Of a stretch of 62,559 bases of DNA, positions 15,167-27,564 are shown piece after piece (the stretch's first letter is position 1; each line of letters opens with the position of its first letter). A program made the position numbers and the translations under genes. The stretch covers positions 1 to 62,559 of the forward strand of contig JBJYWI010000138.1 in the NCBI GenBank assembly GCA_046259385.1. Direction: 5' to 3'. The notes beneath the pieces are model-generated. The model worked only from the letters and a program-made list of their open reading frames with translations, was not told where the DNA came from and made no database searches. Source of the stretch: Anaerolineales bacterium (lineage in GTDB: Bacteria; Chloroflexota; Anaerolineae; Anaerolineales; UBA4823).

Positions 15167-15601
15167 ATGACCGATCTTCCACATGTCACCATCTACACAG
15201 ATGGAGCTTGCGATCCGAATCCGGGTCCTGGCGGTTGGGCAGCTTTAATTTTCTTTAAATCGCGCCGGAAGGAAATAAGCGGTTCAGTGAAAGAGTCTAC
15301 AAACAACCGGATGGAATTGACTGCGGCAATAAAAGCACTAGAAACCCTAAACAGGGAGTGTGAGATTGATTTTTACACCGATTCAGAATATCTGAAACGC
15401 GGAATAACGGAATGGCTGGAAATTTGGCGCGCCCGGAACTGGAGGCGAAAAGGGGGAGCATTAAAAAATGTCGACTTGTGGCAAACCTTGGACAAATTAA
15501 TCGCCCGGCATGCGATCGACTGGCACTGGGTACGCGGGCATGCTGGAAATCGCCATAATCAGCGCGTGGATTATCTCGCTAGAAAGGCTATCCGAAGATA
15601 G
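15167..15601 (+). CDS. rnhA: Ribonuclease HI
   Basis: IYTDGAC, NPGPGGW, TNNRMEL, TDSEY, WVRGHAG. Confidence 0.95.
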   Translation: MTDLPHVTIYTDGACDPNPGPGGWAALIFFKSRRKEISGSVKESTNNRMELTAAIKALETLNRECEIDFYTDSEYLKRGITEWLEIWRARNWRRKGGALKNVDLWQTLDKLIARHAIDWHWVRGHAGNRHNQRVDYLARKAIRR

Positions 15602-15613
15602 GAGAAAAGTAAA

Positions 15614-16069
15614 TTACCCTCCTTGAATCTGAGGCGGCTGGTCGTCATCCGAATACTCGATTTTTGTGAGAGGTTCAGCAGTTTCTCCGATATCAACCTT
15701 GTCTTCCATCCGAATTTGGCCTCTCAGGAAAGCACCTTCCTCCGTGGCGAAAGAGGTGGTAACCACGTTTCCCCATACCCTGCCGGTTGAACGTATTTCT
15801 ACTTTTTCGGCGGTGATGTCTCCTTTGACAGCCCCGGCGATAATCACCACATTTGCATACAGATGTTCGCAGGTTACTCGACCGGATGCACCGATCACGA
15901 GTAAACCGTGCAAATTTATTTGACCTTGAAAAGCTCCCTCAATGCGCATGCCTCCGCTTCCGCTGATAGAGCCTTGCCAGATAATGCCCGAGCCCAATAT
16001 CGAGGTAACCCGCTCAGTTTGGGCTGGTTTTAAGGAAGGGAAGTTGTTTTCTTCACGCCTTCTAAACAT
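15614..16069 (-). CDS. Bactofilin (polymer-forming cytoskeletal protein)
   Basis: Beta-helix repeats: SILGSG...RIEG...VIIAGAVKGDI...GRVWGNV...EEGAFLRG. Confidence 0.85.
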   Translation of the reverse strand: MFRRREENNFPSLKPAQTERVTSILGSGIIWQGSISGSGGMRIEGAFQGQINLHGLLVIGASGRVTCEHLYANVVIIAGAVKGDITAEKVEIRSTGRVWGNVVTTSFATEEGAFLRGQIRMEDKVDIGETAEPLTKIEYSDDDQPPQIQGG

Positions 16070-16136
16070 GGTCGTGTTGTCAATTTATTTTTTGCTGGAG
16101 TTGGGCTGTCAACTTTCGCGCTGCACAGCATAACAT

Positions 16137-16934
16137 TTAACTGTTCATTATTGTTTCCATTGATTCGGTTAGACCCAAAATATTGTAGCCTGAGTCGACG
16201 AATACCACCTGTCCAGTCGTTTTAGCGGCCATATCTGAGCAGAGATATACAGCAGCCTGGCCTACGTCTTCTGCGGTTATACCCTTTTGTAACGGCGCGA
16301 CTTCTGTGAATTTACGGTACATGGTCTTGAAGCCAGAAACGCCTGCAGCTGCCAGGGTTCGGATGGGACCGGCGGAGATGGCATTGACCCGCACACCCTG
16401 AGGTCCAAAATCGTAAGCAAGGTAACGCATTGAGGCTTCCAGTGCCGCCTTCGCGACTCCCATTACATTGTAATGGGGAGAGACTTTCTCTGAGCCATAA
16501 TAGGTCATAGTGACCATGGATCCGCCAGGGCGGAACAGGGGCTGGAAGGCTTTTGCAAGGGCGGTAAAAGAGAATACACTTATGTCCATTGCCAGGTGAA
16601 ACCCCTCCCGGCTGGTATTGTAGTAAGGGCCGGTGAGTTCATCACGGTTGGCAAAGGCGATCGCATGCACGAGGATGTCAATCTCACCAAATTCCTGTCT
16701 GGCTTTTTCAACAATGTTCGCGATTTCGTCATCTTTGGTGACATCACATGGCTCAACAAACGTACATCCAATCGATTCAGCAAGCGGACGCACCCGCCTT
16801 TCGAGCATTTCTCCAGCGTAACTTAACCCAACCGTCGCGCCCTGTTCATGGAAAGCGTTCGCGATTCCCCATGCAATTGACCTGTTGTTGGCAACGCCAA
16901 AAATTAACGCTGTTTTTCCTTTTAGGATGGTCAT
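16137..16934 (-). CDS. fabI: Enoyl-ACP reductase
   Basis: GVANNRSIAWGIA, YNVMGVAKAALE, RVNAISAGPIRTLAA. Confidence 0.95.
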   Translation of the reverse strand: MTILKGKTALIFGVANNRSIAWGIANAFHEQGATVGLSYAGEMLERRVRPLAESIGCTFVEPCDVTKDDEIANIVEKARQEFGEIDILVHAIAFANRDELTGPYYNTSREGFHLAMDISVFSFTALAKAFQPLFRPGGSMVTMTYYGSEKVSPHYNVMGVAKAALEASMRYLAYDFGPQGVRVNAISAGPIRTLAAAGVSGFKTMYRKFTEVAPLQKGITAEDVGQAAVYLCSDMAAKTTGQVVFVDSGYNILGLTESMETIMNS

Positions 16935-22868: not shown

Positions 22869-24167
22869 GTGTTACAATCGCAGGCTGTGAACTACTTCAA
22901 TTTTACCGGCAGAATTGTTCGACTGTTTATTGTTATCGTTCTTGCGCTGGTTTTGCTCGGGAGCAGCAATATTGCCATCAGCGATACAATTGAAAGGGTA
23001 CGTTCATTTACACGTGGAATCGAGTTTGATTATTTTGACTGGACAGCAGATGCCATCGGTTTGAAGTTTGCTCTCTCCTCACAAGGGGTAAGCCGATACA
23101 TTGGAAACAATCGCCAGGTACAGCTAATCTACGACTACCTTGACCTGATAACCAGAATTCATCAAAAAGAACGCGAACTGCAATCAATTTTTGCTGATCC
23201 AAATATATTTGATCCCCTTGCTGCTTCGGAAGAAATCGAGACTGAACTTTCCCACCTATATGCCTATCGCAATCTAATCGCTCCTGTTTCGGAAGAAGTG
23301 CTACAGGGGCAAATACACCGCGTAATCGCTGATCTGGGAATCGGTCCGGGAGGGCAGCCGTTTCCTCCGGTTTTATACCACAACACACCTCTCCCGTATG
23401 CATTGATAGTCAGCCCGCGCGATTTTATCCGGCAGGATGCTGATATCTCTTTGATACCCGGCTTGTCTTTGGATGAGCAGGTTGCGCTGGAAGATAAAGT
23501 AGATCGGGGACTTAAAGTCTCGTCTCTTGTGGTTCCCATCGGGGGAGTTGGAGTATATCCGACCATGGTCCAGGAGACGAACAATCTGGTCTGGTTGAGC
23601 GAGGTAGTAGCGCATGAGTGGGTACACAATTTCTTAACTTTGCGCCCATTAGGGATAAATTACTTTTCAAGTCCTGAGTTAAGAGTGATGAATGAAACAA
23701 CGGCTTCAATTGCGGGCAAGGAAATTGGAACAGCGTTTCTGGAAAGGTTCTACCCGGAATTGGTGCCGCCTCCAGCTCCTGAGAAGAGCGAGGACACACC
23801 GGAATTGTTGGAACCAAATGAACCGCCAGCGTTTGATTTCCGAGCCGAGATGCACGAAACTCGGTTGAAAGTCGATGACCTGCTGGCTGAGGGAAAAGTT
23901 GAAGAGGCTGAGGCTTATATGGAAGCGCGGCGCAGGTTCTTTTGGGATCATGGATACCAGATCCGCAAGTTAAACCAGGCATATTTTGCTTTTTATGGTG
24001 CCTATGCAGATGAACCCGGCGGTCCAGCAGGCGCAGCGGAAGATCCGGTCGGTGAAGCCGTAAGAGAGTTGCGGAAGCAAAGCCCCTCCCTGGCAGCCTT
24101 TCTCAACCGCATCTCGTGGCTGTATTCATTCGAGCAGCTGGAACGAATTATTAATCATGGAGCTTAA
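22869..24167 (+). CDS. Putative membrane-anchored zinc aminopeptidase-like protein
   Basis: AHEWVH (HExxH) plus downstream NET Glu and LNQAY; N-terminal hydrophobic segment; start may be GTG 22887. Confidence 0.6.
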   Translation: MLQSQAVNYFNFTGRIVRLFIVIVLALVLLGSSNIAISDTIERVRSFTRGIEFDYFDWTADAIGLKFALSSQGVSRYIGNNRQVQLIYDYLDLITRIHQKERELQSIFADPNIFDPLAASEEIETELSHLYAYRNLIAPVSEEVLQGQIHRVIADLGIGPGGQPFPPVLYHNTPLPYALIVSPRDFIRQDADISLIPGLSLDEQVALEDKVDRGLKVSSLVVPIGGVGVYPTMVQETNNLVWLSEVVAHEWVHNFLTLRPLGINYFSSPELRVMNETTASIAGKEIGTAFLERFYPELVPPPAPEKSEDTPELLEPNEPPAFDFRAEMHETRLKVDDLLAEGKVEEAEAYMEARRRFFWDHGYQIRKLNQAYFAFYGAYADEPGGPAGAAEDPVGEAVRELRKQSPSLAAFLNRISWLYSFEQLERIINHGA

Positions 24168-24218
24168 AATGATTGGTAAAATGATATTAAATATCCAAAT
24201 TGTAAAAGGAGAAATCAA

Positions 24219-25553
24219 TTGGTGAAACACAGGTTTTTAATTGTGTTCCTGATCGGGGTTTTGTTTCTAACCGCATGTTCGCAGGTTTCTCGAGTGTCAG
24301 AAGATTCTGCAGTTGCGGAAGCGACAGACCTGGTGCAGGAGCAAGAAACGGACAAAAAATCAGGTTCTCAGGAAGAAGCTGGAGAGCTGCCCGATTCTAA
24401 AGAGAAAGAATCAGAACCTTTGGAAGCACTCTCTCCGGGCGAGTCCAGTGGGAGCCTTGCAACAAGTGAGGGTTGCAGGGAAAAAGATCCAATTGCAATC
24501 GCTTATGATGTTCTGTCGCCTCCAAATGATAATGATTGGATTTCAGGACCGGAGGATGCGCTGATTACAGTGATCGAATATGGCGATTTTCAGTGACCCG
24601 GCTGTGCAGGCATTGCGCCCGTGTTGGCGCAAATCAAAGAGGATTATTCTGGGGATGTAAGGGTTGTTTTCCGTCATTTTCCTTTGAATTCTCATGATAA
24701 AGCGAAGGTTGCGGTGCAGGCTTCGGAAGCGGCTGGCAAGCAGGGCAAATTCTGGGAAATGCACGACCTGTTATATGAAAAATTGCCTGAATGGAGGAAT
24801 TTTTCGATAGAAGAATTCACTCAATGGGTGGTACCACAGGCAGTCGAAATCGGATTGGATGAAGATCAATTTGAAGAGGATATGACCAGTCAGGAACTGA
24901 AGGATCTAGCCGAGCAGGCATGGGAAACTGGATCTAAATTTCTTCCCGGCACCCCGTTCATTATCGTAAATGGGCAACCCTACCAGGGTAATCTGAGCTA
25001 TGATGGACTCTCATCTTTTATTGATTTTAAATTGTTTGAAGGTGTAAACCGGTTTGAATGCCCTGAAATGGTAATTAATCCCCAGAAAGAATATACCGCC
25101 ACCATTGAAACAGAAAAAGGGGATATCGAGATTGAGCTGTATGCGGAACAAGCACCGTTGGCTGTCAACAGTTTTTTATTCCTTGCGGAGAATGGTTGGT
25201 TTGATAATGTGATCTTCCACCGGGTTATCCCTGGTTTTGTCGCTCAAACAGGTGACCCTACCGGAACCGGCATGGGCGGTCCTGGATATGAATTTGACAA
25301 TGAAATCAAACCTGAATTGAAATTTGATAAACCTGGTGTTGTGGGTATGGCGAACTCTGGACCGGACACTAACGGAAGCCAGTTTTTCATTACCTACGAA
25401 GAGATACCCAACCTTGATGGGAACTATACTATCTTCGGACAAGTTATTTCGGGGATGGATGTTGTTGAGAGTCTGACCCAAAGAGATCCATCTCAAACGG
25501 GAGAACTGCCAGTTGGTGATCGAATTTTAAGTGTCAAAATTTTAGAGAGCTAA
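24219..25553 (+). CDS. Probable selenoprotein: lipoprotein DsbA-type thiol-disulfide oxidoreductase fused to cyclophilin-type PPIase (444 aa, Sec126)
   Basis: ORFs 24219-24596 and 24621-25553 are in one frame, separated only by TGA 24594-24596 in EYGDFQ-TGA-PGC; RHFPL and GTP DsbA motifs; FHRVIPGFVAQTGDP, MANSG, NGSQFFIT cyclophilin motifs; LTAC lipobox; SD AGGAG at 24207-24211. Confidence 0.85.
24597..24632 (+). promoter_or_regulatory. Putative bacterial SECIS element
   Basis: Perfect 7-bp stem TTGCGCC (24613-24619) / GGCGCAA (24626-24632) with loop CGUGUU, about 24 nt 3' of the UGA. Confidence 0.7.
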
Positions 25554-25566
25554 CGAGTTATCTGAA

Positions 25567-26805
25567 TTGATCGAGGAATCGAATAAGAACAACTGGTTGA
25601 CAATTCTTCAGTTGGTATTTAGCGCTCTGGCGGTGATTGGTTTGTGGGCGCTGGCTTTGATTCTGCTTTTTTTTGGCGTTTTTGGAGTGGTTGATTTTCA
25701 AGGCATGGGTGGAGGAAGATTGCCGCTGTACCTTTCTGCGGCCGCGAGCGCAGCAGCCGGTCTTTTGCTGGTTCCATCTGCTGTATATTCATTCAACAGG
25801 GCTTCGGGACGGAAAATAACCCTTCGATACCCGGACAAGTGGTGGCTGCGGCCCAACATACTGATTTTCACCCTGCCTGCGGTGCTTTTGCTGGGCCACC
25901 ATGCTGCACAGAATGATTACTTATCTCTGTGGTTTTTGCCGGTTTTCCATATTTTTGCGGTTGGGCTGCCGATACTCTGGTTTCTTTATCTAGGCGTCCG
26001 CGACCTCCCGCTTGGTTCAAAGCAAAGAAGGTGGGGCGTGCTCGCCAGCGGTCTGGCATTGGGACCTTTCATGATTATGCTGGTTGAATTTTTACTGCTT
26101 GGTGTGGTGATTTTCGCTGGTGTGATCTTTTTATTAAACCAGCCAGATGGACTAAATGAGTTATACGCCAGCTTTGAGACATTGGTCAATTCGAGTGCGG
26201 ACCCTGATCAAATTGTAGCTAATCTGGGTCCATACTTCTTAAAACCGGGAATACTGTTATTGGTATTCTTATTTGTATCGGTAATTGTCCCGTTGGTTGA
26301 AGAGGCTCTTAAACCGGTCGGGGTATGGTTATTGATCAACCGGAGCTTAACTCCAACTGAAGGATTTGCGGCGGGGTTGATAAGCGGCGCAGGTTACGCT
26401 TTTTTTGAAAGCGCCGCACTTTCCAGTACGGCTGATGAATGGATGCTGGTGGTTGTCGCGCGGATCGGCACGGCTGTTATTCATATCCTAACAGCAGGTT
26501 TAATGGGCTGGGCGATGGTCTATTCATGGCGGTACAGCAAATACACCCGGCTGGGCTTAAGCTATGTGGGTGTAGTATGTTTACATGGATTATGGAACGG
26601 GCTTACATTATTGATGATGCTGGCTTTTATTGTTGAAGAATTTAATCCGGGTTTGGATGCCCCGTTTAGGGTGCCAGAAATTGACGCCGTCGTCCCTTTT
26701 ATGCTGGGAATGATAAGCCTTGCTGCTTTTCTAGCCCTGTTGTGGGTCAATGGATATCTTAATAAACAGCAAAGAGAAGAGAGCAGGCAAAGCGAAGCAG
26801 TGTGA
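25567..26805 (+). CDS. PrsW-family intramembrane metalloprotease
   Basis: Multi-TM; EEALK, FFES, H, HGLWN motifs. Confidence 0.75.
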   Translation: MIEESNKNNWLTILQLVFSALAVIGLWALALILLFFGVFGVVDFQGMGGGRLPLYLSAAASAAAGLLLVPSAVYSFNRASGRKITLRYPDKWWLRPNILIFTLPAVLLLGHHAAQNDYLSLWFLPVFHIFAVGLPILWFLYLGVRDLPLGSKQRRWGVLASGLALGPFMIMLVEFLLLGVVIFAGVIFLLNQPDGLNELYASFETLVNSSADPDQIVANLGPYFLKPGILLLVFLFVSVIVPLVEEALKPVGVWLLINRSLTPTEGFAAGLISGAGYAFFESAALSSTADEWMLVVVARIGTAVIHILTAGLMGWAMVYSWRYSKYTRLGLSYVGVVCLHGLWNGLTLLMMLAFIVEEFNPGLDAPFRVPEIDAVVPFMLGMISLAAFLALLWVNGYLNKQQREESRQSEAV

Positions 26806-26892: not shown

Positions 26893-27564
26893 ATGGAAAT
26901 CATTTCATATTTCATTGATTTTATTCTGCACCTTGACGAGCACCTAAGTACGATCATTCAGAATTACGGTACCTGGACTTACCTGATTCTGTTCGTGATT
27001 ATATTTATGGAGACGGGATTGGTTGTGACGCCGTTTCTGCCCGGAGATTCGCTTTTGTTTGCGGCAGGGACATTTGCCTCACCGGCGTTGGGTTCTGCAT
27101 TAAATATCTTCTTGCTGTGGGCGCTGCTGGTTGCGGCAGCAGTCATTGGGGATACAGTAAATTATTGGGTAGGGCATTTTATCGGACCGCGAGCTTTCAG
27201 TGGTGAGGTCCGTTTTCTCAAGAAAGAGTATCTCGACCGGACTCATGAATTTTATGAGAAACATGGCGGAAAGACGATTATTTTAGCCCGGTTCGTGCCA
27301 ATCATCAGGACGTTCGCGCCCTTTGTGGCTGGCGTTGGAGAGATGAGTTACGGGCGCTTTATTTCTTATAATGTAATCGGGGGGGTTTTATGGGTGAGTA
27401 TTTTTACAATGGGAGGTTATTTCTTCGGCAACCTACCGTTTGTCAAAGAAAATTTTACCGTTGTTGTGGTGGCGATTATCTTTATTTCCGTTTTACCGGC
27501 TGTTTACGAAATTGTGAAGGAACGACTTAATAAACCATCGAAGGCTGAAGCGCCTGATTATTAA
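26893..27564 (+). CDS. DedA family membrane protein
   Basis: [35 protein letters not shown]; extended -10 TGCTATAAT at 26830-26838. Confidence 0.93.

Follow-up and report, generated by a model that had tools for sequence, protein, structure and literature searches.

A probable selenocysteine-containing DsbA-cyclophilin lipoprotein split by an in-frame UGA in an Anaerolineales genome

We analyzed a 62,559-nucleotide contig from an Anaerolineales bacterium (JBJYWI010000138.1, here the window; contig C138 of an assembly of 3.8 Mb in 294 contigs, 90% complete), focusing on positions 24219 to 25553, where two open reading frames (ORFs) are listed. This region is very probably a single gene encoding a 444-residue selenoprotein, namely a tethered lipoprotein in which a DsbA/BdbD-type oxidoreductase with selenocysteine (Sec) in its active site is joined to a cyclophilin. 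The reading draws on an in-frame TGA shared by 55 orthologues, a covarying hairpin downstream of it, and a genome equipped for Sec incorporation. All gene features described below lie on the + strand.

Reading frame and Sec/Cys alternation among orthologues

The ORF listing (translation table 11) gives a 125-residue ORF (24219 to 24596) and a 310-residue ORF (24621 to 25553). Both share one frame, and only the TGA at 24594 to 24596 parts them, as stated in the first-pass annotation of this DNA. With the UGA read as Sec, the frame runs for 444 codons to a TAA (25551 to 25553). The UGA would encode Sec126, position 1 of the redox motif U-P-G-C129 in the read-through sequence YGDFQ-U-PGC. The first-pass annotation had placed this codon at the first Cys of a thioredoxin-fold motif, and matches to the Thioredoxin_4 and DSBA profiles do span it. 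A Shine-Dalgarno-like AAGGAG (24206 to 24211, read from the sequence) lies 7 nt upstream of the TTG start at 24219, and GGAG runs of a similar kind precede the starts of relatives.

A six-frame search of 61 close-relative genomes (own, genus, family, and order) returned two-domain matches in 49, comprising 29 with exactly one TGA and 20 without. In a class-wide sample of 301 genomes, 71 had such matches, 72 in all, of which 33 contain one TGA and 39 none. Seventy orthologues were read as DNA: the first 30 close-relative loci, all 32 other TGA-bearing matches from the class, and 8 of the 39 class matches without TGA. The TGA stands at the first Cys of xPxC in every one of the 55 Sec forms read. 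At the same column, 13 of the 15 non-Sec forms have TGC or TGT and two lack the first Cys (SFEC, APGC); the second Cys is kept in 12 of those 13, the other reading CRHS. Conservation crosses the stop in one frame, from ...IEYxDFQ upstream to PxC...RHFPL downstream. Hence, the gene shows the pattern expected of a selenoprotein, that is, an in-frame UGA aligned with Cys in homologues and conserved on both flanks. Such an alignment had been proposed as a check in the first-pass annotation, which anticipated TGA or Cys at this column and named uniformly Cys-bearing relatives lacking a conserved hairpin as the opposing outcome. What we found instead was alternation of TGA and Cys (55 and 13, with two neither), with the hairpin described below kept in Sec forms.

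A maximum-likelihood tree of the 70 orthologues, built with the active-site column masked, shows 13 changes of Sec label, at least six of them forced by well-supported branches; the tree is unrooted and quick, its sample over-represents Sec forms, and it gives no direction of Sec/Cys change. Among named records, the two-domain form was found only in Chloroflexota, mostly Anaerolineae (13 of 80 loci kept). Three named records of metagenome-assembled genomes (MAGs) are Sec forms with a hairpin of the window type, and the isolate Ornatilinea apprima P3M-1 carries a Cys form (CPYC); among the named isolates, no Sec form was identified.

Several orthologues and paralogues are of separate interest. 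Five loci (L030, L083, L087, L100, and L103, the last labelled an Anaerolinea thermophila MAG) lack the redox pair, reading SFEC, APGC, CRHS, SDIC, and APAS, and keep the cyclophilin; judged by these motifs, they are redox-dead versions of the fusion. In one genome, two copies of the fusion stand in tandem with about 270 nt between them, one a Sec form and the other a Cys form reading CLAC (L050 and L082; G079:C16:13631-14971 and 15243-16232). The NCBI record P0007 (488 residues) is a truncated Sec-form relative that starts just past the presumed UGA and has two tandem cyclophilin domains. Three stand-alone DsbA-like paralogues with one in-frame TGA each (G032:C35:152993-153544, G021:C149:30074-30643, and G052:C3:87636-88151) may belong to the known DsbG-like (seleno)lipoprotein family. 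A further fusion copy, matched in three pieces with several TGAs (G027:C4:216010-217061), is either frameshifted or decayed, or reflects an assembly problem. Finally, a 240-nt contig (run X2, record 10) matches only 24573 to 24598 and 24741 to 24767 of the window, with 145 other letters between, and probably comes from a diverged relative in the same sample.

The downstream hairpin and the selenocysteine machinery

Shortly 3' of the UGA lies a hairpin resembling a selenocysteine insertion sequence (SECIS) at 24613 to 24632, with a 7-bp stem (TTGCGCC, 24613 to 24619, pairing with GGCGCAA, 24626 to 24632) and a 6-nt loop (CGTGTT, 24620 to 24625) bearing a conserved G near its start. The distance from the UGA is 16 nt to the stem and 23 nt to the loop, so that the "about 24 nt" of the first-pass annotation fits the loop. 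A range of UGA-to-SECIS spacings is known from published work. Folded alone, the 24-nt hairpin reaches -11.2 kcal/mol (z = -2.66), and 5 of 200 shuffled sequences fold equally well.

The same design, here called type A, occurs in the same register in 27 of the 55 Sec forms; its loop is CGUGNU, and its 7-bp stem occupies +20 to +26 and +33 to +39 when numbering starts at the U of the UGA. Covariation among relatives, which had been suggested as a check on the hairpin, is clear: across 23 of these 27 sequences, 98.1% of 161 cells are paired and four of the seven pairs show two-sided changes (13 cells), a covariation score reached by none of 500 shuffles. Sliding the partners by 1 to 3 columns as a control left only 29% to 56% paired. 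Some of the compensations span codons and come at the price of an amino-acid change, for example Ala replaced by Val or Met where the other side of the stem has a synonymous change or one from Pro to Ser. Synonymous sites are also frozen at codons +8 to +12 after the UGA. Among sequences with the majority residue, third positions in the hairpin read Pro CCC in 23/23, Val GUG in 26/26, Leu NUG in 19/19, and Ala GCG in 14/15, compared with entropies of 1.3 to 1.9 bits at other four-fold sites within 30 codons. In no case among the 15 non-Sec forms examined do at least six pairs in the type A register occur together with a CGUG loop; two of them (SFEC, CPGC) reach six pairs, but with other loops. 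The shared TGA column in 55 orthologues and the covariation of the hairpin are decisive in showing that the arrangement is more than chance.

A different hairpin (type B, loop GGN) is found in 25 other Sec forms belonging to other families (class-level orthologues L051 to L079). Its 7-bp stem, at +35 to +41 and +45 to +51 after the UGA, lies about 15 nt further 3' than that of type A and likewise covaries (98.3% paired, with 22 cells in four pairs changed on both sides). Type B sequences have an extra hairpin 1 around +13 to +33, in a register that differs among clades, and the remaining three Sec forms have other hairpins. Within this one gene family, the SECIS seems to have been relocated or built anew. 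One Cys form (L086, TGT, G199:C364:1396-2562) retains both type B hairpins and may be a relic of a recent change from Sec to Cys.

The genome was also searched for selA, selB, selC, and selD, as the first-pass annotation had advised, and all four are present above curated cut-offs. Profile searches gave 525.6 bits for selA and 343.8 bits for selB, and the tRNA-Sec scored 75.5 bits and was called SeC by ARAGORN (anticodon tca). Two selD genes exceed the cut-off (L017 at G000:C6:29698-30630 and L016 at G000:C102:8090-9013). One of the two itself contains an in-frame TGA (SDCAG-U-ASK), 3' of which lies a GC-rich hairpin whose loop has GUG. The other sits in an open frame of 752 residues, which suggests a fused SelD.

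Protein architecture and relation to known families

The predicted product begins with a lipoprotein signal peptide (24219 to 24278) ending in the lipobox L17-T-A-C20 (Cys20 codon 24276 to 24278), which fits the pattern [LVI][ASTVI][GAS]C. A convincing lipobox was found in 24 of 27 orthologue N-termini; of the rest, one is cut off by the end of its contig, another is doubtful, and in the third none was found. Conservation was assessed in a 30-row alignment (A2) that omits these three N-termini and adds six Cys forms from databases. Its invariant positions are C20, C86, C/U126, P127, C129, G244, P246, C281-P282, and the cyclophilin motifs. An acidic, Ser/Pro-rich linker follows the lipobox (24279 to 24503). 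It is poorly conserved and predicted to be disordered, with a predicted local distance difference test (pLDDT) below 50 for residues 21 to 82 of the AlphaFold model, and the invariant Cys86 (24474 to 24476) stands within its otherwise gappy alignment.

A DsbA/BdbD-type thioredoxin-fold domain (24531 to 25025, residues 105 to 269) is identified by Thioredoxin_4 (PF13462; 1.2e-23, 84.5 bits against a cut-off of 23.2), and DSBA (PF01323) matches residues 117 to 268 (6.8e-12, 46 bits against a cut-off of 25.6). U126-P-G-C129 lies at the start of a helix (127 to 142), helices at 160 to 241 are inserted before a strand (247 to 250), and G244-T245-P246 (24948 to 24956) is a likely cis-proline loop, the cis conformation being predicted from its alignment with the TP of BdbD; in A2, G244 and P246 are invariant and T245 is kept in at least 90% of rows. 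These elements (a CxxC-type motif opening helix 1, inserted helices, and a predicted cis-Pro loop) are the ones that mark this fold. The segment between the two domains contains the invariant Cys281-Pro282 (25059 to 25064); a structural disulfide between Cys86 and Cys281 is a guess at this stage.

The C-terminal part is a cyclophilin-type peptidyl-prolyl isomerase domain (25098 to 25535, residues 294 to 439; PF00160, 1.1e-45, 156.1 bits against a cut-off of 21.7). The motifs FHRV...Q.GDP and NGSQFFIT are kept, with F333, H334, Q343, G345-D346-P347, and N385-F390 invariant and R335 present in at least 90% of rows; we take these conserved residues to map onto the catalytic residues of human CypA. 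They align with PpiA of Mycobacterium tuberculosis (1w74), the best solved relative of the domain (1.7e-37). The expectation of a 444-residue DsbA-cyclophilin lipoprotein in the first-pass annotation therefore agrees with the lipobox LTAC and with Pfam domains on both sides of the TGA. The AlphaFold model has a mean pLDDT of 80, with both domains mostly above 90. When the whole model was compared with the PDB by Foldseek, all the structures returned were cyclophilins (target TM-scores of 0.74 to 0.84 against crystal structures such as 1zkc, 2a2n, 2oju, and 6lkb), and no solved two-domain relative appeared. The redox domain was therefore placed by sequence, its best solved relative being BdbD of Bacillus subtilis (3eu3, 5e-12).

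Public collections hold the gene in shortened form. The record P0002 (310 residues) is identical to the downstream ORF of the window, and 42 of the best 120 database matches are truncations of 298 to 312 residues with 66% to 70% query coverage; gene callers thus do split this gene, as the first-pass annotation had expected. A public cluster of 45 members bears only the name "cyclophilin family...". Cys-form orthologues are common and are stored as single proteins of 410 to 445 residues, for which the JGI pipeline gives the machine annotation [quoted passage not shown]. These Anaerolineae fusions share the architecture of the window protein (47% to 59% identity) and the invariant Cys20, Cys86, and Cys281, but have CxxC in place of UxxC.

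BdbD is a membrane-associated DsbA-type oxidase of a monoderm, and its partner, BdbC, is of the DsbB type. It aligns with the window protein at both the CPxC motif and the TP loop, and the predicted location of the window protein is likewise extracytoplasmic. BdbD differs in having CPSC with Cys and no peptidyl-prolyl isomerase domain. The two also differ in setting: the window genome encodes a VKOR homologue (89.4 bits), and a search of this 90% complete genome found no DsbB. Two paralogues of the ordinary Cys type, with the motifs CPYC and CSAC, are also encoded in the genome; both are Thioredoxin_4 proteins and have an N-terminal membrane anchor.

DsbA-like selenoproteins with UxxC have been reported from the Sargasso Sea and from bacterial genomes, and the accessible text of these reports mentions no fusion to a prolyl isomerase (PMC1088965, PMC1794560, PMC5029168). 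A 2026 review (PMC13188914, accessible portion) lists "DsbA-like form 1" (PF01323) and a UxxC "DsbG-like protein" (NF041057). The words "cyclophilin" and "peptidyl-prolyl" have no occurrence in PMC13188914 and PMC1794560, nor have "fusion" and "fused" in PMC1088965. DsbA-like selenoproteins (PF01323/COG2761) resemble the window protein in having Sec for the first Cys of CxxC and a SECIS with a G in the apical loop; unlike them, the window protein has Thioredoxin_4 (BdbD type) as its better Pfam match. NF041057 (Rcas_1661 family thioredoxin-like (seleno)lipoprotein) likewise has a lipoprotein signal followed by a DsbA-type fold with UxxC, and positions 2 to 245 of its 247-position profile align with residues 10 to 269. 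However, the window protein scores only 82.5 bits (76.6 in the genome search, the weakest of three matches there) against a cut-off of 190 bits, and its C-terminal cyclophilin domain is not covered by the profile. As its score falls so far below the cut-off, we classify it by profile as a relative and not a member of NF041057.

Full-text searching, with subscription journals and supplementary tables outside its scope, found no literature on a Sec-bearing or natural DsbA-cyclophilin fusion, and nothing relevant on selenoproteins with a prolyl isomerase or on selenoproteins of Anaerolineae. The accessible part of a preprint (10.1101/2022.07.06.499078) covers other thioredoxin-like selenoproteins and does not mention the fusion family. 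Hence, UxxC DsbA-like and DsbG-like selenoproteins are already known and the Cys-form fusion is machine-annotated, while the fusion of this selenoprotein type to a cyclophilin, as a genuine but unannotated selenoprotein gene, appears to be new.

The gene is preceded by a 432-residue ORF (22869 to 24167, + strand) with an N-terminal hydrophobic segment and an HEWVH motif. It matches no Pfam family at E 0.001 and may be a metalloprotease that is as yet unclassified. The gene is followed by a PrsW-like membrane protease (25567 to 26805) and a VTT/DedA protein (26893 to 27564).

Alternative readings, proposed function, and significance

Other explanations of the in-frame TGA are conceivable. Termination might be the main outcome, yielding a 125-residue lipopeptide and a separate 310-residue protein from GTG 24621. 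This split is what gene callers and databases report, and Sec insertion is generally inefficient and rarely complete, so that some termination is likely and a truncated 125-residue lipopeptide may also arise. However, the 310-residue product would have neither signal peptide nor redox motif, and its thioredoxin fold would be missing the first strands. Its GTG start sits within the hairpin loop and, as the first-pass annotation had noticed, has no Shine-Dalgarno sequence (no AGGAG-like run was read upstream). Scanning for promoters and terminators gave counts at shuffle level and no signal in the space between the two halves. Moreover, the Cys-form orthologues are single proteins, and the frame, TGA column, and hairpin are conserved across 55 genomes. 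We regard termination as the main outcome as very unlikely. More unlikely still is that UGA is read as Cys or Trp without selenium, whether through a near-cognate tRNA or an altered genetic code. UGA read-through is known in some bacteria, and non-Sec orthologues do have Cys at this column. Nonetheless, TGA is an ordinary stop codon in the window: of 43 stop-to-stop frames with 250 codons or more, 15 close with TGA, 25 with TAA, and 3 with TAG. The genome also encodes the complete Sec machinery, and one of its selD genes is itself a selenoprotein gene. SelB-dependent decoding, unlike plain read-through, needs a hairpin such as this one, which is conserved, covaries, and keeps a fixed distance.

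At first sight, a lone in-frame stop in a metagenome-derived contig also resembles a dead gene, with the TGA as a nonsense mutation or a sequencing error. Yet the same codon stands in 55 orthologues from many families, the protein is conserved on both sides of it, TGA forms show no relaxed constraint downstream, and the hairpin covaries. Independent sequencing agrees with the assembly. Of the words sampled from the stretch, half or more were present in each of fifteen DNA metagenome runs; for two DNA runs, each from a separate study, contigs cover 24594 to 24596 with no difference at these letters, and contigs from two metatranscriptome libraries (24513 to 24663 and 24457 to 24800) span the UGA and the hairpin without a differing letter. 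Because these DNA-run and RNA-library contigs bridge the TGA unchanged, it is not an assembly slip. A dead gene is contradicted by the data and is the least likely explanation of all.

Some observations do weigh against the selenoprotein reading or narrow it. The 67 nt following the UGA are no more stable than shuffled sequence (z = 0.14) and, as this longer fold is uninformative, the argument for a SECIS rests on the short hairpin and its covariation. An Rfam scan of 24400 to 24800 at E up to 10 returned only a chance match to a small nucleolar RNA (E = 9.5), so the hairpin falls under no curated SECIS family. The RNA-library contigs indicate presence only and may include DNA carry-over, selenium at residue 126 is predicted on the basis of sequence, and the relative placement of the two domains in the structural model is moderately confident (predicted template modeling score of 0.63). 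In addition, 39 of the 72 class-wide matches and 20 of the 49 among close relatives carry no TGA, which makes Sec dispensable for the fusion family, and the redox motif has been lost in some orthologues (SFEC, APGC, CRHS, APAS), so the cyclophilin part can persist without redox chemistry.

If the gene encodes a selenoprotein, as we favor, SelB with Sec-tRNA(Sec) would most likely recognize the hairpin at 24613 to 24632 and insert Sec at the UGA at 24594 to 24596. The product would be exported, probably acylated at Cys20, and held at the outer face of the cytoplasmic membrane, where the flexible linker of about 75 residues could let both catalytic domains reach unfolded exported proteins. Sec126 would act as the exposed nucleophile, with an intramolecular Se-S bond to Cys129 as the oxidized state. 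Exchange with substrate cysteines would pass through a mixed selenenylsulfide, and selenium would speed both attack and release. The cyclophilin would isomerize prolyl bonds in the same substrates; that the two active sites cooperate is a guess. Domain homology and the lipobox point to a coupling of disulfide chemistry with prolyl isomerization outside the cell. The catalytic direction (oxidase or isomerase) and the redox partner are likewise putative. As an oxidase, the redox domain might be re-oxidized by the VKOR homologue, which we propose because DsbB was not found in the genome; a role as isomerase or reductase is the alternative.

For annotation, the consequence is that Sec forms (33 of 72 class-wide and 29 of 49 among close relatives) are stored as N-terminally truncated "cyclophilins" without signal peptide or redox site. 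Such records mislead calls of function and location, and many of them would be put right by a dedicated profile that carries a Sec flag. A broader picture, to which we give slightly less than even credence, is that these proteins form the first selenoprotein family with a prolyl isomerase, an extracytoplasmic seleno-lipoprotein foldase spread across Anaerolineae, in which Sec is the older state, often replaced by Cys, and the SECIS has been rebuilt at differing distances. Through this gene, an abundant lineage of anaerobes would have selenium chemistry in its cell envelope, and the two slow folding steps, disulfide exchange and prolyl isomerization, would be joined in one tethered chain. The coexistence of Sec, Cys, and redox-dead forms, with two SECIS designs serving one UGA, offers a series for studying Sec/Cys exchange and SECIS turnover. 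If the proposed function is correct, oxidative or isomerizing protein folding in the envelope of Anaerolineae anaerobes would depend on selenium, and the family would provide a natural series for asking what benefit Sec brings to a DsbA fold.

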